NCBI GenBank assembly: GCA_947623935.1
Contig: CANQIE010000002.1
Span: 2,481 to 66,480 of the forward strand
DNA length: 64,000 nucleotides
Direction: 5' to 3'
DNA from: an uncultured Bacilli bacterium
GTDB taxonomy: Bacteria; Bacillota_I; Bacilli_A; RF39; UBA660
Shown here one piece after another: positions 19,686 to 58,731 of this stretch. The notes under the pieces were generated by a model. It ran no database searches, was not told where the DNA came from, and saw only the letters and a program-made list of their open reading frames with translations. Positions within the stretch are counted from its first letter, which is position 1, and every line of letters begins with the position of its first letter. The translations under genes and the position numbers were made by a program.

Positions 19686-20519
19686 TTAGGCTCCTACTGG
19701 TGCTTTATCAGCAGCATATACATTAAGTCTAACCGAGAAAGTTTTACCATTGGTTCCACGTTCACTTAATTTACAATCTTTACTTTCATCTGTCATAGAA
19801 GAAACGGTTGTATCATCTGTTATTTCACATTTACATTCAGCGTCTTTTCCATCCTTAGTACAAACATCATTAAACATATTTGTCTTAGTGTCATTAGAAG
19901 TAATGGATTCTGCACCTTTATCCTCATCATAATAATGATCAGAGAACCACATTTGGAAACGATAATAATGAGAATCTTGATTATTATCTTTATCATTTAA
20001 ATCAGCAGATTTAAATGTTCCACTATATAATTTCTTTTGTTTAGCATTTCCATTATATGTATCTAACTCATTAAAGAATTTAGCTTGAACTACATCTTCA
20101 TTATATGTTCCTTCCGTAGCACCTTTCTTTAAACAAAGTCTTACATATTTAGACTCTAATGTTTTTACTTTATCTGGATCCGTAGATTCCTCAACTACTA
20201 TATCATACGAAATATCCATATTTCCTTTAATAGTAGAAGTTACATTAAATTCAAAACTTTCATTTTTACTGTCTACAGCTTCATTCGATACTTGACTATC
20301 TGATATAGGCATCGCATTTGTTAATTCTATTCCTGCTGTTTCTTCATTATACTTAAATACTAACGTACCTGTACTAATGGTATTTTCAGTAGATCCTTGT
20401 CTTGAATAAGTAAAGAACGCAAATGACACTCCTATTACTGCTACTACTAAGATGGCTACGGCTAAAACAGATAATAATACTTGCCGTCCAGTATTATTCT
20501 TATTATTTTCCTCGTACAT
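19686..20519 (-). CDS. TasA/camelysin-like surface protein family, short member (no FGE-like domain)
   Basis: The N-terminus has a TM anchor and FAFFTYSRQGSTENTISTGTLVF, matching the SipW-cognate signal and TasA/Peptidase_M73 N-domain pattern (GTFAyFsD...NtfaaGTLdL). It ends FSVRLNVYAADKAP. Confidence 0.55.
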   Translation of the reverse strand: MYEENNKNNTGRQVLLSVLAVAILVVAVIGVSFAFFTYSRQGSTENTISTGTLVFKYNEETAGIELTNAMPISDSQVSNEAVDSKNESFEFNVTSTIKGNMDISYDIVVEESTDPDKVKTLESKYVRLCLKKGATEGTYNEDVVQAKFFNELDTYNGNAKQKKLYSGTFKSADLNDKDNNQDSHYYRFQMWFSDHYYDEDKGAESITSNDTKTNMFNDVCTKDGKDAECKCEITDDTTVSSMTDESKDCKLSERGTNGKTFSVRLNVYAADKAPVGA

Positions 20520-20539
20520 TTTTCTCATATCCTTTCTAT

Positions 20540-20590
20540 TATAATTAAATTATAATAAAGTTAACCCCCCCCCAGTCAAGCGATTTGACA
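20540..20590 (-). promoter_or_regulatory. sigma-A-like promoter with a G9 tract in the spacer (TTGACT-G9-ttaactt-TATTAT), upstream of 19686..20519
   Basis: Read from the sequence: C9 on the plus strand at 20565..20573, with -35 and -10 hexamers flanking it and a 16-bp spacer. Confidence 0.55.
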
Positions 20591-20738: not shown

Positions 20739-22802
20739 TTATTTTTTAATAGGAGCAAGCACTAAGCGAAAAGAGGCTCCACATGCTCCACCATCAGTAT
20801 GTCCAAGATTAAAGATACCCGAAAGTCCGCCCCCGGAAGAACTACCACCACGGTTGAGCCATGGAGCAAACGTGTATACAAACATAGCTCTAGCTTTATG
20901 CCATCCAGCTGTCTCTGATAGGGCATGACCATAACATGCTTCCCCATCACATGCTGTTGCCATTTTTGTAGTATCATTTGTTGTATTGGTTGGATTATAT
21001 AAATCATAATATTTGGAAACTGGTAATTCTCTTCCCTCAGATACTGATTTTCCATCATTTAATAAACCATTAAATCCAGAATTAGAATCCATAGTCGCGC
21101 CACTTCTTGAGTTTCCACTATCATCTGCTAAAACACCCATGACAGAATCACCTGATCCACCACTCATATCATATACTCCTGTGATATTTCCTGTAGTAGA
21201 TGCTTTTTGACCTTTACTTGTTTCATAAGTATTTATGTCACAAGTATCAGCACTTTCTTCTGCTTTTGCAGAATCTCCCGCTATTCCTGTAATCTTTTTA
21301 GAACAATTGTTAATATATACTGCCTTTTCATCAATTCCATAAGCATCATTTCCATATTTTCCATACTTACTTTGAGATAAGTAGGCAACTGAAGCCCATT
21401 CACTACTCTTACTCATATGTGTATCATAACTGGTTTGACTACTAGAAAATCCATAAATATTATAATTTGTTGTTTGCATCCTTCTACTTACTTCAAAAGC
21501 AGTTGATACACGGATTCCCTTCCATGAAGTTACATTCGGTTTTATTTCTGGAGTATACGTTTCTTTATCACAGCCAGTATTTACTGAACCACTTGCTGCG
21601 ATACATTCTTCTTTACTACTTGGTTCAAACTTTGCAAACCATATCCCTGTTAATTCATCACTTCCAAAAGTAAAGGCTGGATGCATCTTGTAATTATTTC
21701 CATCACTTACTTGTTTATCTGTTCCTTCTATAAAGTTTATTTCAATTGCTCCTGGATTTTCATAACAATTAAATGGAGCGATTCCAGGTGATGTACAAGT
21801 TTCTGAATCTCCTTTTACATCATTTATGCTTACATAGTTGTATTCATATCTTGGGATCCATACCCACATCGTGTTGATATCATTCATATCAATTACTGTT
21901 CCTGGTTCTGCATCTTGATATTTCTTTCTTGTTGTTGCACTTACTCCATCCGCATCTAATCCTATCGTTACTGCATTCGCCCATTCTTGTATATCATAAT
22001 CATACCAGTCTTTATATAAGTCTGCTTTTCTCCATTCTCCATCTCTATAATAGACTGGTATTAATCCTTCCACTAAATCTGGTGAATTGGCTCCACTTGC
22101 ATCTTTGTATATTGCTGGTTCTCCTGGTTCTAATAATTCTCCATTTTGTGCATATACATTTACTCTTACAGAAAAACTCTTACCATTATACTTCCATGAC
22201 CCATTTACTACTTTATCTGCTTCTTCATCTATCCACATTCTAAACCGATACGTTTCACTATAATTCTCTTTTCCCGCTACTACCGTTCCTTGATATAAAG
22301 TCCTTCCTTCTTTTCCTTCTAATACAGGTACCTGACTCATTTTTAATTTATTATATAAATTAATGCCTTGACTATTAAGAGTATCGCTTACTGGCTCTTC
22401 ACTTTCTAATCCCTCTGTATTCGTTACTCTTGTTAAATAAGTTTTTACGGCATATTCTGGTAAAGTAGATCCCTCTTCTTTGGTTAGATAAATTTCATAA
22501 TTGATATCTGCTCCTTGTGTTGTTGCTTTGATATCAAAATCGAATACTCCTTCTCCTGTTTTATCTAATTTTGTTCCTTTATCATCACTTGTTGGAAATG
22601 CATTCGTTAAATTTACTCCATTCTTTTCTGCTCTTTTTTCATCATAAATAAATGTTAATGTTCCTGTATGTAATGTATTCTCTGTTGTTCCTTGTCTTGA
22701 ATACTGAAAGAAAGCAAAAGTTGTTCCTACTGTGATTAATACTAAGCTTAATACGAGTAGACATACAGCAATGAGTTCTTTTATATTTCTCTTTTTTTCC
22801 AT
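20739..22802 (-). CDS. TasA/camelysin-like N-domain plus FGE (SUMF1/EgtB/PvdO)-like C-domain surface protein, 687 aa
   Basis: The N-terminus is KELIAVCLLVLSLVLITVGTTFAFFQYSRQGTTENTLHTGTLTF. The C-terminal region carries EWASVAYLSQSKYG, GNITGVYDMSGGSGDS, CYGHALSETAGW, RGGSSSGGG and ...GASFRLVLAPI, in the same order as the FGE motifs (EWEYAARGG / GLYDMSGNVWEW / RGGSW / GFRCV). Confidence 0.6.
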   Translation of the reverse strand: MEKKRNIKELIAVCLLVLSLVLITVGTTFAFFQYSRQGTTENTLHTGTLTFIYDEKRAEKNGVNLTNAFPTSDDKGTKLDKTGEGVFDFDIKATTQGADINYEIYLTKEEGSTLPEYAVKTYLTRVTNTEGLESEEPVSDTLNSQGINLYNKLKMSQVPVLEGKEGRTLYQGTVVAGKENYSETYRFRMWIDEEADKVVNGSWKYNGKSFSVRVNVYAQNGELLEPGEPAIYKDASGANSPDLVEGLIPVYYRDGEWRKADLYKDWYDYDIQEWANAVTIGLDADGVSATTRKKYQDAEPGTVIDMNDINTMWVWIPRYEYNYVSINDVKGDSETCTSPGIAPFNCYENPGAIEINFIEGTDKQVSDGNNYKMHPAFTFGSDELTGIWFAKFEPSSKEECIAASGSVNTGCDKETYTPEIKPNVTSWKGIRVSTAFEVSRRMQTTNYNIYGFSSSQTSYDTHMSKSSEWASVAYLSQSKYGKYGNDAYGIDEKAVYINNCSKKITGIAGDSAKAEESADTCDINTYETSKGQKASTTGNITGVYDMSGGSGDSVMGVLADDSGNSRSGATMDSNSGFNGLLNDGKSVSEGRELPVSKYYDLYNPTNTTNDTTKMATACDGEACYGHALSETAGWHKARAMFVYTFAPWLNRGGSSSGGGLSGIFNLGHTDGGACGASFRLVLAPIKK

Positions 22803-22832: not shown

Positions 22833-22868
22833 TTCTATTATAAAACTACCCCCCCCCATGTCAACTTT
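22833..22868 (-). promoter_or_regulatory. promoter TTGACA-t-G9-tagttt-TATAAT with a 16-bp spacer
   Basis: C9 on the plus strand at 22849..22857. A canonical -35 and a perfect -10 sit 34 nt upstream of an AAAGGAGAG RBS and the start. Confidence 0.6.
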
Positions 22869-30901: not shown

Positions 30902-32323
30902 TTAGGATCCTATAAGAGCAAGCACTAGCCGGAACGCGCCACCGATAGCCGGAGCGCCGGTGCTAGAGTTGAAGCTGAACACACCTGCGTGCGTACTATC
31001 ATCATAGTAGTCGCCACGAGTGGACCACGGTCTCGCAGAGCTTACATAAATATGATAATCTCCATACCAAGTTGAAGTTTCTGATAATGCATGACCGTAG
31101 CAAATTATTCCATTACATGCTTTTGCAACATCATTCCCACTATACGAATCATAATACTTAGCTTCTGGTATTTTGTTACCTTGAGCTTCGCCAGAAACAA
31201 ATCCAGATGATGCTACTATAATTGGTTTCCCTGAATTGCTACTATCTTCCAAAACACCCATTACTCTTTCCCAGGCATTACCACTCATATCATACACTCC
31301 TGTGATATTTCCTGTCGTAGATGCCTTTTGTCCTTGTAATGTATCATAGGTGTTTTTATTACAGGTGTTAGTACCCTTTCTTGCATTTGCCGCATCCCCT
31401 GCTATTCCTGTTATACAATTCGAACAGTTATTATTATATACTTCTTTGTCATTTTCTCCATAGGTGTCATTTCCATATTTTCCATACTTACTTTGAGATA
31501 AGTAGGCAACGGAACCCCATTCACTATCTTTACTCATATGCGTATCTATTTTTTCACCTTTAAATCCATAGGTTGATGCCTTTGTTGAATTCATACTTAA
31601 TGAAGCATAGAAAGCATTTGATATATTTATCCATCTCCATGATACTACTCCTGGTTTTATTACTGGAGTTAAATTCGAATTATTAGCAGGTCCATCATTA
31701 AATATTTGTTCTTCATTGCTTGTTTCAAACTTTCCATACCAGAATCCTGTTAATTCATCACTTCCAAAAGTAAAGGCTGGATGCATTTTATAATTATTTT
31801 CATCACTTACTTTGCTGCTTGTTCCATTGATAAAGTTGATTTCTATTTCTCCAGGTTTATTTATATTTTGTCCTATTGTTTCCATATTAGTATAGTTATA
31901 TTCATATCTTGGTATCCATACCCACATGGTATTAATGTCATCCATCTCTATTGGAGTATCTGGTACCGCTTTTTGATATGTTTCTCTTTGTTTAGTTCCG
32001 CCATCTTCATCTAATCCAATGGTTACAGCATTCGCCCATTCTTGATTACAGTAATTGTACCAATTGGCTGTGTTAGCATTCGCTTTCTTCCAGGTTCCTT
32101 CTTCATCAGAAATTGGAAAAGCATTCGTCAGACTTACTCCATTTTTGTCTTTTCTATTTTCATCATAAATAAAGGTTAATGTTCCTGATTCTAATTTATT
32201 TTCGATTTGTCCTTGTTTTGAATACTGAAAGAAAGCAAAGGTGGTTCCTATTGTAATTAAAATAAGACTCAATACAAGTAAACAAACTGCAACTAGTTCT
32301 TTCTTAGTCCTTTTCTCTTCCAT
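30902..32323 (-). CDS. TasA/camelysin-like plus FGE-like surface protein, 474-aa member
   Basis: Start at MEEKRTKKELVAV, which has an AAGGAG RBS. Carries TFAFFQYSKQGQIENKLESGTLTF and GNITGVYDMSGNAWERVMGVL (the closest match to FGE GLYDMSGNVWEW), and ends FRLVLALIGS. Confidence 0.6.
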   Translation of the reverse strand: MEEKRTKKELVAVCLLVLSLILITIGTTFAFFQYSKQGQIENKLESGTLTFIYDENRKDKNGVSLTNAFPISDEEGTWKKANANTANWYNYCNQEWANAVTIGLDEDGGTKQRETYQKAVPDTPIEMDDINTMWVWIPRYEYNYTNMETIGQNINKPGEIEINFINGTSSKVSDENNYKMHPAFTFGSDELTGFWYGKFETSNEEQIFNDGPANNSNLTPVIKPGVVSWRWINISNAFYASLSMNSTKASTYGFKGEKIDTHMSKDSEWGSVAYLSQSKYGKYGNDTYGENDKEVYNNNCSNCITGIAGDAANARKGTNTCNKNTYDTLQGQKASTTGNITGVYDMSGNAWERVMGVLEDSSNSGKPIIVASSGFVSGEAQGNKIPEAKYYDSYSGNDVAKACNGIICYGHALSETSTWYGDYHIYVSSARPWSTRGDYYDDSTHAGVFSFNSSTGAPAIGGAFRLVLALIGS

Positions 32324-32430
32324 AACTTCACTTCTCCTTTTATTATTTATAGTTTCCATTATAGTTTGTTTTTATTATTAAAACTTCAAAATTAACTAAA
32401 AAGAAACTGTTTTTATTCTATGTTTACAAT

Positions 32431-32463
32431 TTTATTATAAAACTACCCCCCCCCACGTCAACT
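32431..32463 (-). promoter_or_regulatory. promoter TTGACG-t-G9-tagttt-TATAAT
   Basis: C9 on the plus strand at 32446..32454. The roughly 100-nt conserved leader is shared with the 58589 gene. Confidence 0.55.
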
Positions 32464-34668: not shown

Positions 34669-36480
34669 TTAACAAGATGGCCAAGACCAATTGTCGTCGG
34701 CACAATCACCATAACAATTTTTATATACGTCATATGAAGCAGGAGCCTCCCAACATGCGTAACCACCATCTCCAGCCGTACGTCCTCCAAAGCAGCAGTG
34801 TGTTCCACCACCTCCGCCAGAACTTTCACACGCATGAGTATTACAGCTAGATGATCTACTAGTTGATCCGCAAGAAGAAGCGAAGAAAGAATCATATTTT
34901 GTACCACTTTGATACTGAGTTCCACCATCGCAGTCTCGATCACAGCTACTCCAGCCGCCCCATGAGGTAGTCGTTTGAGAACAATATTTATATACATTAT
35001 AAGAAGAATTATAACTTCCAATGTTTCCTGCTTGATCTTCTACAAAAGCATAAAAGGTAGTACTTCCTCCATCATAATCACGTCCAGTACTTAGAGCACG
35101 ACTTATATTAGAATAAGCAATCCAGTTACAATTGTTCACATTTGGTGAAGTTTGAATACACATACGTGTAACTCCAGGAACTGCATCTGTAGCATTTACC
35201 GATAAATTTGCAATGTTTGTATGGTATCTTGTATCTTGTGAAGAAACCGTTAAATGTACTACTGGAACGGTTGTATCAATTCGAACTGTTTGGTTGGCAG
35301 GACAAGTTGTTTCGTTACCAACCTTATCTCGTACCACACCCGGTGATTCCTTGGTCGAATCGATATCTGTATTAATAACTCTCGTAACATTTGCTGCACA
35401 TCCACTTCCTGAATCACTACAAGTACCTAAAAGAGTTCTACTGGTATTAATCCAGGTACTGTCTCCTCCAGAAGAGACACAAGAAGGATTGGTTTGATCT
35501 ACCGATACAGTATAATCGATTGCTGTACTTTTATTACCAAAATTATCAACTGCCCTTACATATACTTTTTGATTAAAGTCATGTGAACCATTATTTAATT
35601 TTGCTAATAAATCTTTTTGTGTAATCGAATCACTTGTCGTATAGGTCCATAAGTTACTATTGTTCGGTTGATTTGAAAATGAGTATTCATATCCTTTTAC
35701 ACCTGAACCCATGGGTCCATCTGTAGCATTAAAAATTTGATATACATCATTTTTAGTCCAACCTCCATTATAAATCGTTCCTGATAAACTATTTTCTCTT
35801 AACACCACATTAATCATATTAGGAGATGTAACATCGAGCACTTTAACTTCAATACTAATGGGCTCTGCATTTAAATAATAATAAGTTAACGTATAAGTCG
35901 TTAAAACATTTGTATCGATATAGCTAGGAGTCGATCCTATATCACTTCGAACAAGTTCGCCATCATAATAATAGGATGCAAAAGGGGCTATAAAAGGTTC
36001 CCCTTGAATTACTTCATAGTAGGTTTTATCAATGGTTAGATACCCATCTTTTCTACTACCTATACCACTTCCATTGCCCTCTTCTTGACTCGAAGAAAAA
36101 TCACAAGAACTATCACTCTCATAATTATCACATTTAAGACAGGTTAAATAATCTAATTTATCCCCTTTCGTTACTTCTACATAACCTATACAATTTTTCT
36201 TAGAAGTACTTTGTGGTTGATCAATATATTTCAAATTAACCAAATTTGATAAATCGACTTTTCCCTTATCTCCTTCACTAATGGGAGTTAAAGTATGATG
36301 ATCCATATAGTAGTCTCTTCCTGCTAATTCCACTAAACGCGTAAGATTAGAATAATACCTTTGATCAACATCTCCAAAAGAAGCAGATAACGCAGGAATA
36401 GCAATCAAAGCAATCACTCCTAAAATAACAATAACTCCTAAAGTTTCTACTAATGTAAATCCTTTTTTATTTAGATGCAT
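34669..36480 (-). CDS. prepilin-type N-terminal cleavage/methylation domain protein (603 aa) with a Cys-rich C-terminal region
   Basis: The N-terminus MHLNKKGFTLVETLGVIVILGVIALIAIP is a canonical class III (type IV pilin/pseudopilin) signal. The C-terminal 100 aa hold about 20 Cys, including WGGWSSCDRDCDGGTQ. Confidence 0.7.
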   Translation of the reverse strand: MHLNKKGFTLVETLGVIVILGVIALIAIPALSASFGDVDQRYYSNLTRLVELAGRDYYMDHHTLTPISEGDKGKVDLSNLVNLKYIDQPQSTSKKNCIGYVEVTKGDKLDYLTCLKCDNYESDSSCDFSSSQEEGNGSGIGSRKDGYLTIDKTYYEVIQGEPFIAPFASYYYDGELVRSDIGSTPSYIDTNVLTTYTLTYYYLNAEPISIEVKVLDVTSPNMINVVLRENSLSGTIYNGGWTKNDVYQIFNATDGPMGSGVKGYEYSFSNQPNNSNLWTYTTSDSITQKDLLAKLNNGSHDFNQKVYVRAVDNFGNKSTAIDYTVSVDQTNPSCVSSGGDSTWINTSRTLLGTCSDSGSGCAANVTRVINTDIDSTKESPGVVRDKVGNETTCPANQTVRIDTTVPVVHLTVSSQDTRYHTNIANLSVNATDAVPGVTRMCIQTSPNVNNCNWIAYSNISRALSTGRDYDGGSTTFYAFVEDQAGNIGSYNSSYNVYKYCSQTTTSWGGWSSCDRDCDGGTQYQSGTKYDSFFASSCGSTSRSSSCNTHACESSGGGGGTHCCFGGRTAGDGGYACWEAPASYDVYKNCYGDCADDNWSWPSC

Positions 36481-36575: not shown

Positions 36576-36589
36576 AAAAAAGTCCAAAG

Positions 36590-36730
36590 GGGCGATGTTA
36601 TCAACGATAAAACCTGCACCCATGTACAGGTGGGTGTCCATACGTCACCTTTAGGATCCCTAATCACAAGTGAAAAGGTCTTCAACACCGGTAACTGATC
36701 CGGACTCCCGTATCGTTATTTTAGTCGGTT
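36590..36730 (-). ncRNA. candidate structured RNA or riboswitch-like leader; class not identified
   Basis: A locally GC-rich 140-nt segment with long-range complementarity (AACGATA at 36603-36609 pairs with TATCGTT at 36711-36717) and internal hairpins (CACCCA...TGGGTG). It is followed by the terminator and then the pilin-like gene. Confidence 0.3.
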
Positions 36731-36869
36731 TTATATTGGATAACAAACGAATCCCTTTAGACAATATTATTATATCATATCTCTTTTAAAAAATACTACT
36801 ATTTCTTCACTTTCTTTTTAAGATTGAACAAAGATCTTTTTTATTCATACACTATAATAGGTGAAAAAT

Positions 36870-55861: not shown

Positions 55862-56113
55862 TTATCCTCCTAACTCAATGGATTTAATTTTCCCCGAGAT
55901 TAAGATTTCTTGATCTAATAATTTTTGAATAGAAAGATTTTCTCCTTTTATAATCATGAGTCCTAAATCACATCTTAAAGAAATACGTGCCTCTTCTAAT
56001 ACTAAAACTTCTAAGTAATTAACGACATTTAATTTTTCATTTTGATAACTAAAGTGAAAGACATTATCTATACAGTAATCTCTTATTTCTCTAAACATAG
56101 TCTCACCTATCAA
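55862..56113 (-). CDS. YqfC-like small protein
   Basis: 83 aa. Lies in the position of yqfC. The LxIxGxxL pattern resembles YqfC. Confidence 0.45.
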   Translation of the reverse strand: MIGETMFREIRDYCIDNVFHFSYQNEKLNVVNYLEVLVLEEARISLRCDLGLMIIKGENLSIQKLLDQEILISGKIKSIELGG

Positions 56114-56194
56114 AGTATATGTAAAGAAGCCTTAACTTAGAAAAAGAAAAGCATAACCATTTCTCATTTTTTCATTTCTTTCACCAAAGAAAAA

Positions 56195-56236
56195 ACAGTA
56201 CAAACAACATGTACTGTTCTTTCCATAGCCTCTAAT
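56195..56236 (-). terminator. rho-independent terminator (AACAGTACA-aacaaca-TGTACTGTT, T-rich 3' tail on the minus strand)
   Basis: 9-bp perfect stem downstream of the family gene and orphan fragment. Confidence 0.5.
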
Positions 56237-56387
56237 ATTCAGGAAATATCCCTTACTAACTAGAAAACTACTGTTAATGTTTTTATTCATCAATTTTTGA
56301 TGAAAAGGAATTTATCTTCGATGATAAATCTTCAAAAAAAGTCCTTGAACTCTTTTGTCGAAGAAATGCTTCTCGCATTATATATCA

Positions 56388-56535
56388 TAGTCTAGGCGCA
56401 AGAACGAGGCGGAACGAGTTGTTGCTGTTCGCATTGCCATTGTTGTTGTTGAAGTTGAACACCCCAGCATTCGTGCCATCATTATAGTTGCCGCCGCGTT
56501 TGAACCACGGGTTCGTAGAGCAAAAGAGAATACTA
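56388..56535 (-). pseudogene. orphan 3'-terminal fragment (about 50 codons, no start) of the TasA/FGE-like family
   Basis: Translates to ...TNPWFKRGGNYNDGTNAGVFNFNNNNGNANSNNSFRLVLAPRL-stop. Its DNA is clearly similar to the 3' end of the upstream gene at 56646..56760 (CTAGGCGCAAGAACGAGGCGGAACGAG versus ATAGGCGTAAGAACGAGCCGGAACGAG; GCCGCGTTTGAACCACGGGTTCGTAGAGC versus GCCGCGTTCGAACCACGGGTACGCAGAGTC). Confidence 0.55.
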
Positions 56536-56645
56536 CGTGCGCAAAAAAGGAAAAAACGTGAGAGATTTGATATAGATAAATTCCTGACCCACCCCTGGAA
56601 AAAAAAGAGGGGGTGGGCGCGGTTAAAAGTGAACGAGTAAGTCGC

Positions 56646-58589
56646 TTACGCTCCTATAGGCGTAAGAACGAGCCGGAACGAGTGAGTGCTGTGAGGCTCG
56701 CCATTCAAGACACCGAACCAGAACACCCCAGAAGACCTCCCATCATACCAGACAGCGCCGCGTTCGAACCACGGGTACGCAGAGTCTACAAATGAATGAT
56801 CATCTCCATACCATCCTGCGGTTTCGGATAAGGCGTGTCCGTAACATTCTCCATTTGTTGTACATGAGGTGGCTAGATTTGTTGTATATACATCATAATA
56901 CTTGGCATCTGGTAATTTATTACTATCATTACCTCCGTCAACAAATCCAGAAAATTTTATTGTTGGCTTACCATTTCCATCATTCAAAGCGCCCATGACA
57001 TATTCATATGCTCCACCACTCATATCGTAGACTCCTGTGATATTTCCTGTAGTAGAAGCTTTTTGACCATCAGTTGATTCATAAGTTTGACTACATGCTG
57101 CCACTCCTGTTGTATAACTACTACAACTATTTATTGTTACCTCTTTACTATTTTCATCATATGTTTCATTTCCGTATTTTCCATAAATACTTTGTGATAA
57201 GTAGGCTACTGCTCCCCATTCACTATTCTTACTCATGTGGGTATCTATGCTTCCATCACTACTGAATCCATATTTTGGTGCATTTGCTGCTGTTGTCATA
57301 TTTAATGCTGCATAAAACATATTTACTACTTTTACATTTCTCCATGATGTTGTATTTGGTTTTATAATCGGTGTTAAAGTTGAACTATCTGTTGTATATT
57401 GTTTTTCTTCATTACTAGTCTCAAATTTTCCATACCAGAATCCATCTAATTCTGTTCCACCAAAACTAAACGCTGGATGTACTTTATAATTGTCTGTATC
57501 TGCTGAAGTTACTTCTTTACTTATAAATTTTATATTTATTGCTCCTGGTTTTGTAGCAGTTCCTCCTGCATAACTTGCAATACTTACAGAATCATATTCG
57601 TATCTTGGTATCCATACCCACATTGTGTTGATATCTTCTGCAAGTATTTCTTCACCTGCTTCAGCACTTATATAATTTGCTCTTTTAGCATCGGTTACTG
57701 TTACTGCATTGGCCCACTTTTGCTTTGTATAATCGTACCAATCACTACTACTTGCTTTTTCCCATCTTTGGTCTACATCATCATATACTACAGGTACCAT
57801 TCCTGTTACTAGCTTTGGTACACTTGCTCCACTTGAATCTTGTGGTTTAGCATATGGATCGTCTCCTCCTGGTTCTACTTCTTCTTGTGGTTCAGTTGGA
57901 TCAGGAATTGCTTCATTTTGTGCATATACATTTACTTTTACAGAGAATGTCATATTGTTGTAAATCCATGCTCCATTTTCTACTTGATTAGCTTCTTCAG
58001 CAATCCACATTCTATATCTAAAATGCTTTTCATAATTGCTTTCACCATTTGCTATAGTTTCTCTATATAATGTTTTTGCAGCTGTATCTTCATCTTCTAA
58101 TATACTTGGTACTTTACTATCCCATAGAGCATTATATAGATTTAGATTTGTTTCTGTTGGTAATCCTGTTGTTTCCGGAGCACTTTCTATATCACTGCTT
58201 AAAGTAGTTAGATACGTCTTTACTACTTTCTCTGGTAACTCGCTTCTTTCATCTGTAGGAGCTACTTTTGTTAAATAGATTTCATAATGAATTGCTGCTC
58301 CTTCGGTCTTTGCTCTTACATCAAAATCAAAGACTCCGCTTTTATCTTTGTCTAGTGCTTCACCATCTTCATCACTCATAGGGAAAGCATTCATTAAAGA
58401 TACTCCTCCTGCACTACTTTTACTTTCATCATAAACAAAAGTTAATGTTCCTGTTTGAATCTTATTCTCGGTAGCTCCTTGTCTTGAATAATTAAAAAAG
58501 GCAAACGTTGCTCCTACCGTGATTAAGACTAAACTGAACACAAGTAGGCTTACTGCTATTAGTTCTTTCTTATTTCTTTTTTCTTTCAT
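56646..58589 (-). CDS. TasA/camelysin-like plus FGE-like surface protein, 648-aa member
   Basis: Start at MKEKRNKKELIAVSLLV, which has an AAAGGAG RBS. Carries TFAFFNYSRQGATENKIQTGTLTF, EWGAVAYLSQSIYGKYG and GNITGVYDMSGGAYEYVMGAL, and ends SFRLVLTPIGA. Confidence 0.6.
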   Translation of the reverse strand: MKEKRNKKELIAVSLLVFSLVLITVGATFAFFNYSRQGATENKIQTGTLTFVYDESKSSAGGVSLMNAFPMSDEDGEALDKDKSGVFDFDVRAKTEGAAIHYEIYLTKVAPTDERSELPEKVVKTYLTTLSSDIESAPETTGLPTETNLNLYNALWDSKVPSILEDEDTAAKTLYRETIANGESNYEKHFRYRMWIAEEANQVENGAWIYNNMTFSVKVNVYAQNEAIPDPTEPQEEVEPGGDDPYAKPQDSSGASVPKLVTGMVPVVYDDVDQRWEKASSSDWYDYTKQKWANAVTVTDAKRANYISAEAGEEILAEDINTMWVWIPRYEYDSVSIASYAGGTATKPGAINIKFISKEVTSADTDNYKVHPAFSFGGTELDGFWYGKFETSNEEKQYTTDSSTLTPIIKPNTTSWRNVKVVNMFYAALNMTTAANAPKYGFSSDGSIDTHMSKNSEWGAVAYLSQSIYGKYGNETYDENSKEVTINSCSSYTTGVAACSQTYESTDGQKASTTGNITGVYDMSGGAYEYVMGALNDGNGKPTIKFSGFVDGGNDSNKLPDAKYYDVYTTNLATSCTTNGECYGHALSETAGWYGDDHSFVDSAYPWFERGAVWYDGRSSGVFWFGVLNGEPHSTHSFRLVLTPIGA

Positions 58590-58698
58590 AATTTCTTCTA
58601 CTCCTTTTATATTTATTATTTTCATTATAGAGTCTTTTTATAATAAAAACTTCAAAGTTAACTAAAAAGAAACTTTTTTTCTTTCTATGTTTACATTT

Positions 58699-58731
58699 TT
58701 ATTATAAAATTGCCCCCCCCCATGTCAACTT
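58699..58731 (-). promoter_or_regulatory. promoter TTGACA-t-G9-caattt-TATAAT
   Basis: C9 on the plus strand at 58713..58721. The roughly 100-nt leader is conserved with the 32323 gene. Confidence 0.55.

Follow-up and report, generated by a model that had tools for sequence, protein, structure and literature searches.

A probable diversity-generating retroelement remnant without its enzyme genes behind a surface-protein gene of an uncultured Bacilli bacterium

Why does a start-less copy of a gene's 3′ end lie directly downstream of an intact surface-protein gene in an uncultured Bacilli bacterium? We addressed this question for a 64,000-nt stretch of contig CANQIE010000002.1 (GenBank assembly GCA_947623935.1, positions 2,481 to 66,480; hereafter the window), in which the copy follows, on the minus strand, the gene for a protein of 659 amino acids (aa) that belongs to a multigene family. 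A preliminary description had placed the copy 110 nt from the stop codon of this gene, which is correct, and had proposed that it exchanges with expressed 3′ ends by gene conversion. Translation and blastn alignment confirmed that the copy represents the 3′ end of a family gene. The homologous end of the 659-aa gene is likewise real; it had been placed at 56646–56760, whereas the alignment puts it at approximately 56657–56790. Our analysis indicates that the locus is very likely derived from a diversity-generating retroelement (DGR). Specifically, we interpret it as the probable cis half of a DGR whose enzyme genes were lost and whose variable region is now frozen.

In DGRs, a template repeat (TR) and its flanking RNA are transcribed, and a complex of Avd and reverse transcriptase (RT) reverse-transcribes the TR, misincorporating opposite adenines. 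The cDNA replaces the variable repeat (VR) of the target gene, guided by the sequence at the 3′ end of the VR and by a hairpin downstream of it, and the AAY codons (AAC or AAT) of the template randomise the binding face of a C-type-lectin-like protein. On the minus strand, the window contains a target gene, VR, small hairpin, GC hairpin, TR, RT-14-like RNA and terminator in the same order as intact elements of related uncultured gut Bacilli. The features are as follows:

56646–58625, minus strand: target gene (659 aa), whose product combines a membrane anchor at the N-terminus with a variable-protein domain of DGR type at the C-terminus, based on the open reading frame, its homologs and the predicted fold
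56657–56790, minus strand: VR, the last ~45 codons of the 659-aa gene, GC-rich and out of register with the TR
56637–56649, minus strand: small hairpin overlapping the stop codon, GTAAG-CGA-CTTAC, read from the sequence and present in the plus-strand fold, with a putative function in the element
56588–56617: GC-rich hairpin or cruciform found by folding, CCCACCCC, a 14-nt T-rich loop, then GGGGTGGG
56393–56527, minus strand: TR, the orphan fragment of the preliminary description, non-coding, with 13 AAC/AAT codons at the variable positions of the family
56225–56392, minus strand: structured RT-14-like DGR spacer RNA starting with the conserved AGACTATG, based on Rfam and a cross-species alignment
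56183–56223, minus strand: terminator-like hairpin and T run that end the TR-RNA unit
56114–56184, minus strand: junction at the place expected for the MutS-like, Avd and RT genes, where homology to the closest relative ends and yabP follows

The minus-strand translation of 56388–56561 reads ...STNPWFKRGGNYNDGTNAGVFNFNNNNGNANSNNSFRLVLAPRL and has no start codon; the translated copy ends in ...NPWFKRGGNYNDGTNAGVFNFNNNNGNANSNNSFRLVLAPRL and a stop. The TR and the 3′ end of the 659-aa gene aligned without gaps at an offset of 264 nt, with 72% identity over 128 nt (56393–56520 versus 56657–56784; blastn E = 8e-21). Thirteen of the 40 TR codons were AAY, and their positions coincided with the variable columns in the C-termini of ~120 homologs. 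Every variable position was represented in the donor by AAC or AAT, and between these positions runs the constant scaffold PWF.RGG....AGVF......G......FRLVL. A hypervariable 3′ end that also exists as a non-coding copy, itself invariant and adenine-loaded, is a hallmark of DGRs, and we therefore assigned the copy as a TR.

The same arrangement accompanies enzyme genes in related bacteria. A scan of species-representative genomes for the C-terminal domain yielded 79 loci in uncultured gut Bacilli, four of which have an Asn-rich orphan downstream of a family gene. At three of the loci, which we denote L048, L061 and L069, the orphan is followed by an Avd-like gene and an RT gene with IGNYTSQYFAN and YMDD motifs. 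Look-ups of RT homologs added L081, L083/L084, L085, L086 and L087, all with precomputed Pfam matches to MutS_I, bAvd and RVT_1. The target gene, or its VR end, is followed by TR, RNA, Avd and RT in L048, L061, L069, L081, L083 and L086. A MutS-like gene is also part of the module in L061, L081, L083 and L086, and such accessory genes are a described feature of DGRs (PMC5758913). The L085 contig opens within the TR and includes the RNA together with all three genes (MutS-like, Avd and RT); that of L087 shows only these genes. DGR-clade RTs were found in L048, L061, L069, L081, L083, L085, L086 and L087, and the Avd of L086 passed the NCBIfam model NF033474 (diversity-generating retroelement protein Avd) with 80.3 bits against a cut-off of 80.

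Differences between TR and VR in these relatives were concentrated at adenines: 19 mismatches at TR adenines versus 2 at other bases in L048, 18 versus 1 in L061 and 19 versus 2 in L069. L083 and L084, which come from two samples and have identical RTs and TRs, differed at 19 positions of the VR, all at TR adenines, and at a single position in the other 2.5 kb. Their target cluster comprises four variants on four contigs, of which only the VR differs while TR and RT are identical. Remote targets in register with a TR also occur in the lineage (L051, L052 and L073). Thus, both tests of a DGR origin were favourable: the orphan is conserved beside RT genes in relatives, and the TR/VR differences of relatives lie predominantly at adenines. 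We consider the DGR signature to be the combination of a single donor, variable positions at AAY codons only, an RT-14-type RNA, Avd and RT in relatives, and, again in relatives, differences confined almost entirely to adenines.

One of the relatives carries a further, RT-less module. L052 (10850–11160), from the same genome as L048, contains a second target, hairpin and TR-like copy, and its VR is in register with the TR of L048 (1 non-adenine mismatch). In its 3′ half, the TR-like copy shows changes from Asn to other residues at TR Asn codons, and it also contains a stop codon, as though the copy had undergone retrohoming itself. No RT-14-like RNA was recognisable after this copy.

In the window, the TR is followed by a structured RNA that matched Rfam RT-14 (RF02921) over the full length of the model (56225–56375, minus strand; 40.4 bits, E = 4e-4); RT-9 (RF03080) matched the same RNA with 30.9 bits. 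The window RNA shares with these motifs the stems and the blocks AUUCCUU, UAAA, UUAGUA and GAAUA. Its conserved blocks align across species, and it is ~99% identical to the RNA of L086. The homologous RNAs of L048 (50.4 bits) and L083 (53.6 bits) pass the RT-14 gathering score and lie downstream of the TR, ahead of the accessory and RT genes. The RT motifs, including RT-14 and RT-9, were defined by their association with reverse-transcriptase genes, and only RT-10 was tied to a DGR, the others being the subject of speculation (Weinberg et al. 2017, PMC5737381); in the elements described here, RT-14 occupies the spacer that separates the TR of a DGR from its accessory and RT genes. The TR-RNA unit ends in a hairpin and T run with a folding energy of -9.5 kcal/mol (z = -5.45; 0 of 200 shuffles folded as well), and similar hairpin-plus-T-run elements follow the RNA in L048, L061 and L083. 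A scan of 56050–56750 for consensus promoters and terminators called nothing, including the hairpin at 56183–56223. The TR and the target gene may share a transcript. When JGI metagenome contigs were searched with a degenerate RT-14-like pattern, nine matches were obtained, which are most likely due to chance because none was accompanied by a TR or an RT and five lay inside long open frames.

The preliminary description had also noted an inverted repeat between copy and gene. The repeat exists, approximately 6 nt from where it had been placed (56582–56612): its arms, 56588–56595 and 56610–56617, form an 8-bp stem that starts 29 nt past the stop codon and encloses the 14-nt loop. This GC hairpin is kept after the VR in L009, L048, L052, L061, L081 and L083, and in an alignment of six sequences 95.5% of cells were paired, with compensatory changes in 4 of the 11 pairs. 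Because L009 has the hairpin with no TR after it, the structure belongs to the target rather than to the TR. Compared with that of L086, the window hairpin is missing the CGC that closes the outer stem, leaving 8 bp versus 11 bp. Efficient retrohoming of the Bordetella phage element requires a GC hairpin or cruciform after the VR (PMC3240598), and the window hairpin is likely a DGR target-recognition element. The small hairpin at the stop codon has counterparts of other sequence at the same post-VR place in L083, L009 and L069.

The predicted fold of the target agrees with this assignment. The 659-aa protein has >5000 homologs, in which a conserved scaffold is broken by variable positions that match the Asn codons of the TR. 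Pfam and NCBIfam returned nothing significant for the family proteins. FGE-sulfatase (Pfam) matched weakly and below its cut-off (E ~0.002–0.003) in 9 of 52 aligned homologs and in the 485-aa paralog of the window, and a sequence-profile search of the PDB with a family protein gave only 5vf4, at E = 0.6. The domain was settled only by a fold search. Using an AlphaFold model of the 659-aa protein (mean pLDDT 78), Foldseek found a single solved structure at E ≤ 0.001: 5vf4, the DGR variable protein TaqVP of Thermus aquaticus, which matched in three chains with a best E of 1.9e-7 and a probability of 1.00. The weak sequence match between the two proteins covers the same motifs, HPAF..W.G.F, EWA.VA.L and G.YDM.G...E, whereas they share only 13–14% sequence identity, and the window protein exceeds TaqVP in size, having also an anchor at its N-terminus and additional beta-rich domains. 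The 659-aa protein has, therefore, the C-type-lectin-type variable domain of a DGR target, with the VR in its last 45 codons.

The enzymatic half of the element was not found in the window. A motif scan and tblastn searches with eight proteins of relatives (all E > 0.1) detected no RT, Avd or MutS-like homolog in the 64 kb, and an extra 4.6 kb of L001 likewise contained no RT motif or homolog. The identification of the element as DGR-derived rests, for this reason, on homology to its relatives. In the closest of these, L086 (metagenome-assembled genome (MAG) Lapin-032__bin119), positions 19–521 match the window from 56682 down to 56184 at 92% identity, through hairpin, TR, RNA and terminator, and the identity rises to ~99% from mid-TR through the RNA. 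Past the junction, L086 continues into a MutS_I-domain gene, Avd and RT, whereas the window reaches yabP/yqfC (55862–56113) after ~70 nt, followed by yqfD. We conclude that the module is otherwise conserved but lacks its enzyme genes. The contig of L086 itself starts inside a VR (1–45), and L100 and L101, contigs of the window organism, are interrupted in the body of the 485-aa gene. Repeats of the family and heterogeneity of the VR thus fragment these assemblies, which limits conclusions drawn from the absence of genes.

In the 659-aa gene, the VR has fallen out of register with the neighbouring TR. In a 113-nt core, 19 mismatches fell at TR adenines and 14 at other bases, such that adenines were enriched (Fisher p = 2e-5) without being the exclusive sites of change; the longer alignment contained 16 non-adenine mismatches. 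Non-target, fully assembled paralogs of the closest relative show 12–21 non-adenine mismatches to their own TR, as compared to 14–16 for the window VR. TRs of other species side with the window TR, not with the VR, at 13 of the 15 sites of non-adenine difference; the VR lineage is the one that diverged, not the TR. Among the TRs of L048, L061, L069, L081, L083 and L086, none fitted the VR better. Nor did the 64 kb contain an in-register VR for the TR, the three candidates having 16, 22 and 44 non-adenine mismatches. The 659-aa protein was found as one sequence on 4–5 contigs and is the sole member of its 90% cluster, in assemblies that differ elsewhere; no turnover of this VR between populations was seen. 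With no RT within the 64 kb, a VR out of register and an identical protein in the 4–5 assemblies carrying it, we found no sign of current exchange, and the VR of the 659-aa gene is likely not being diversified at present.

These results can be accommodated by a simple sequence of events. The MutS-like, Avd and RT genes would have been lost from the locus, and rewriting of the VR would have stopped. The VR would then have drifted from the TR at non-adenine positions while remaining constant between assemblies, and the recognition hairpin would have lost 3 bp.

Several observations weigh against a DGR remnant. The TR/VR differences in the window are not restricted to adenines, the RT-14 score lies below the gathering score of 48.1, and the two defining proteins, RT and Avd, were not found in the searched 64 kb. 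The hairpin loop of 14 T-rich nucleotides is unlike the GRNA loops of 4 nt whose importance was shown for the Bordetella phage element (PMC3240598), and the assemblies that share an identical VR may not be independent samples. Moreover, the TR and RNA look fully intact, being ~99% identical to the working copy of a relative, with 13 of the 15 non-adenine differences on the VR side. Neutral decay after loss of the RT would not predict an intact TR-RNA unit with one-sided divergence; this pattern fits either continued selection on the unit, as expected with an RT acting in trans, or a very recent loss. Since RT, Avd, adenine restriction and VR turnover were all wanting, we file the locus as a DGR-derived, RT-less TR/VR module rather than as a demonstrated active DGR.

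Continued selection would be explained if the DGR were split and still at work. In this case, 56183–56527 would constitute a stand-alone template-RNA gene, Avd and RT would act in trans on one or more remote targets, and the 659-aa gene would only have lost its competence as a target because its hairpin is shorter and the final 25 nt of its VR contain two mismatches. Consistent with this, all 13 AAY codons of the TR and the stems of the RNA are kept, both at near identity to the working copy of L086; the side on which the non-adenine differences fall is that expected with the TR under selection; the TR-RNA unit has its own terminator-like end; L051, L052 and L073 show that remote in-register targets occur in the lineage; and trans activity of Avd, TR and RT has been reported for the Bordetella system (PMC5758913). 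However, none of the candidate VRs in the 64 kb is in register, and the TR-plus-RNA unit lies directly upstream of accessory and RT genes in every relative examined, the degenerate TR-like copy of L052 excepted. In addition, a search of 5.8 billion protein clusters, including those of this organism's assemblies, with the L048 and L086 RTs as queries revealed no RT 77–98% identical to that of L086, and the sole RT-like sequence traced to assemblies holding the organism is a 176-aa fragment of another DGR type at 3–5x versus ~10x coverage. We consider a split working DGR unlikely. Similarly doubtful is the broader proposal, hinted at by an intact TR-RNA unit beside a drifted VR, that TR, RT-14-like RNA and terminator form a free-standing template-RNA gene under purifying selection, either as the half of a split DGR with distant Avd and RT or with an RNA role independent of retrohoming. 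The remnant interpretation entails a genome without a working RT for this TR, a point on which the balance is only slightly in its favour.

The RT searches produced two candidates that we rejected. The L086 RT cluster has a second member, P0294; this sequence stems from a different sample and represents the RT of the relative itself. P0295, evaluated as the organism's own RT, is truncated, of the L104 type and at 3–5x coverage versus ~10x, with no sequence link to the window; it is a lead only. This sequence is the 176-aa C-terminal fragment of a DGR-type RT and occurs in L102 (1–3606, ERZ27249657) and L103 (1–2097, ERZ27249187), from two assemblies that also hold the window organism. It has 96% DNA identity to the second DGR of MAG Lapin-003-2__bin48 (L104). 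In L102, the 5′ half of the RT is replaced by two divergently oriented tyrosine-recombinase genes, whereas L103 shows no integrase.

Silent-cassette antigenic variation, as in Neisseria pilE/pilS, Borrelia vlsE and Mycoplasma genitalium MgPar, uses homologous recombination from many diverse cassettes. Applied to the window, the orphan would be a silent cassette undergoing gene conversion with expressed 3′ ends, and the inverted repeat would act as initiator. The resemblance is that one silent, start-less copy adjoins an expressed surface-protein gene of a phase-variable multigene family, with information flowing one way from donor to expressed gene; a cluster of nine substitutions at 31718–31769 could also reflect gene conversion elsewhere in the family. 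In contrast to those systems, the 64 kb contains one invariant donor and no array, and the three 3′ ends of the window share no mosaic blocks beyond the scaffold. The donor is saturated with Asn codons and conserved across genera, unlike a variant cassette; it is linked with an RNA of an RT-associated type and, in relatives, also with Avd and RT. Donor and recipient in those relatives differ by adenine-specific point changes rather than segmental mosaics, and the working elements use an RNA intermediate and adenine mutagenesis. Thus, the earlier idea of a silent donor for C-terminal variation was upheld, whereas cassette exchange or gene conversion as its mechanism was not; we regard recombinational antigenic variation as very improbable here. 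Still less probable is that the orphan is a functionless, decayed partial duplicate and that the GC-rich tails of the family reflect amino-acid or codon bias alone, two possibilities the preliminary description had named as refutations of its own proposal. The lack of a nearby RT and the identity of only 72% between recipient and copy would suit a decayed duplicate. Against it, conservation between species is much higher for the copy than for the genes: the window TR is 84% identical to that of L048, whereas the neighbouring target proteins are ~44% identical, and its 3′ two-thirds are nearly identical to the TR of L086. The AAY pattern and a downstream RNA with compensated stems are kept as well, and the GC content of the tails, described below, exceeds what bias would produce.

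The preliminary description had noted GC-rich tails in all family members, ending in FRLVL(A/T)(P/L)I. We found this ending in the 659-, 485- and 687-aa proteins, and the tails were indeed GC-rich at synonymous sites. The family features of the window other than the 659-aa gene are as follows:

30902–32359, minus strand: family gene, 485 aa
30902–31040, minus strand: VR-like GC-rich tail of the 485-aa paralog, with no TR and out of register
20739–22802, minus strand: family gene, 687 aa
20739–20880, minus strand: VR-like tail of the 687-aa paralog, weaker
19686–20528: shorter family paralog

The GC content at third codon positions (GC3) in the last 45 codons was 0.64 in the 659-aa gene, 0.56 in the 485-aa gene and 0.29 in the 687-aa gene, whose tail is by far the weakest. 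The GC3 expected for the same amino acids using the codons of the gene bodies was 0.15–0.19 (0.19 for the 659-aa gene), such that the observed values were 3–4 times the expected in the 659- and 485-aa genes and approximately twice the expected in the 687-aa gene. Amino-acid bias is therefore no explanation for the tails. The tail of the 485-aa paralog, which has the same sequence in four assemblies, showed 22 non-adenine mismatches to the TR, and no GC hairpin was found downstream of it; that of the 687-aa paralog showed 44 to the nearest TR. In 70 family genes, the mean GC3 was 0.49 in the tail versus 0.17 in the body. The excess in the tail dropped with non-adenine distance to the nearest known TR (Spearman -0.80), a correlation that is partly circular because TRs are themselves GC-rich. 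Members in register with their own genome's TR numbered only one to three in the two genomes for which this was compared. Most simply, the tails of all family members would once have been copied from a GC-rich, adenine-poor template, been inherited by gene duplication, and be slowly reverting to the AT-rich composition of the genome, with that of the 687-aa gene furthest along on the simplest reading.

The preliminary description had suggested that variation of the C-terminus may add a second layer to G-tract switching in the promoters, and it can indeed be placed on top of such switching: tracts of G9 or G10 lie in the promoter spacers of all four family genes of the window and of two relatives' DGR targets. 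In the window, nine-G runs occur on the minus strand at 20565–20573, 22849–22857, 32446–32454 and 58713–58721, in a TTGACxT-G9-...-TATAAT layout that is classic for slipped-strand phase variation. A G10 tract occupies the equivalent position in front of the L048 and L081 DGR targets, but not in L083 or L069. The substitution cluster at 31718–31769, in the body of the 485-aa gene, comprises nine changes in 52 nt that separate L098/L099 from the window, L100 and L101, sequences otherwise identical over 3.3 kb. Compared with both window paralogs, the patch is an exact copy of neither; it may represent gene conversion from an unseen paralog or an assembly chimera.

Two other GC-rich patches of the window were examined. 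A 603-aa protein (34669–36480, minus strand) has a type IV pilin N-terminal methylation motif, and its gene has a GC-rich, Gly/Cys-rich 3′ tail at 34721–34870; the 64-kb window contains no second copy of this tail, which also lacks the AAY pattern. The patch at 36611–36710 is accounted for by a 6S RNA at 36577–36766 on the minus strand (Rfam RF00013, 52.2 bits, above the gathering score).

Among characterized elements, the locus is closest in kind to DGRs with Avd and MutS-like genes and with C-type-lectin- or FGE-like targets, whose prototype is that of Bordetella phage BPP-1 and whose chromosomal examples include Treponema denticola TvpA and Legionella (survey, PMC5758913). The window shares with them a C-terminal VR in a C-type-lectin-like protein, an AAY-rich non-coding TR, a GC hairpin after the VR and a structured RNA by the TR. 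Its relatives share, in addition, the genes for the MutS-like protein, Avd and RT, as well as remote targets; in them, TR and VR differ specifically at adenines, and the VR changes from sample to sample. The window departs from such DGRs in the absence of the three genes and in TR/VR differences that are not adenine-restricted. The gene order also differs, being target-Avd-TR-RT in BPP-1 and target-TR-RNA-(MutS-like)-Avd-RT here, as does the hairpin loop, with 4 nt of GRNA in the Bordetella phage element (PMC3240598) versus 9–14 T-rich nucleotides here. Finally, the target here comes from a large paralog family that is phase-variable by a promoter G-tract.

The finding replaces a speculative model of antigenic-variation cassettes with a concrete and well-understood mechanism, and would explain why every member of a large surface-protein family of AT-rich, uncultured gut Bacilli has a GC-rich tail. 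It also links Rfam RT-14, a motif to which no role had been assigned, with DGRs, where it forms the spacer separating the TR from the enzyme genes. In some members of the lineage, hypervariation by a DGR is stacked on promoter G-tract phase variation. The RT-less copy and its 92%-identical, intact sister copy constitute a natural before-and-after pair, which could be used to study how rapidly a variable region and its template decay after loss of the enzymes, and whether template RNAs can act far from their RT.

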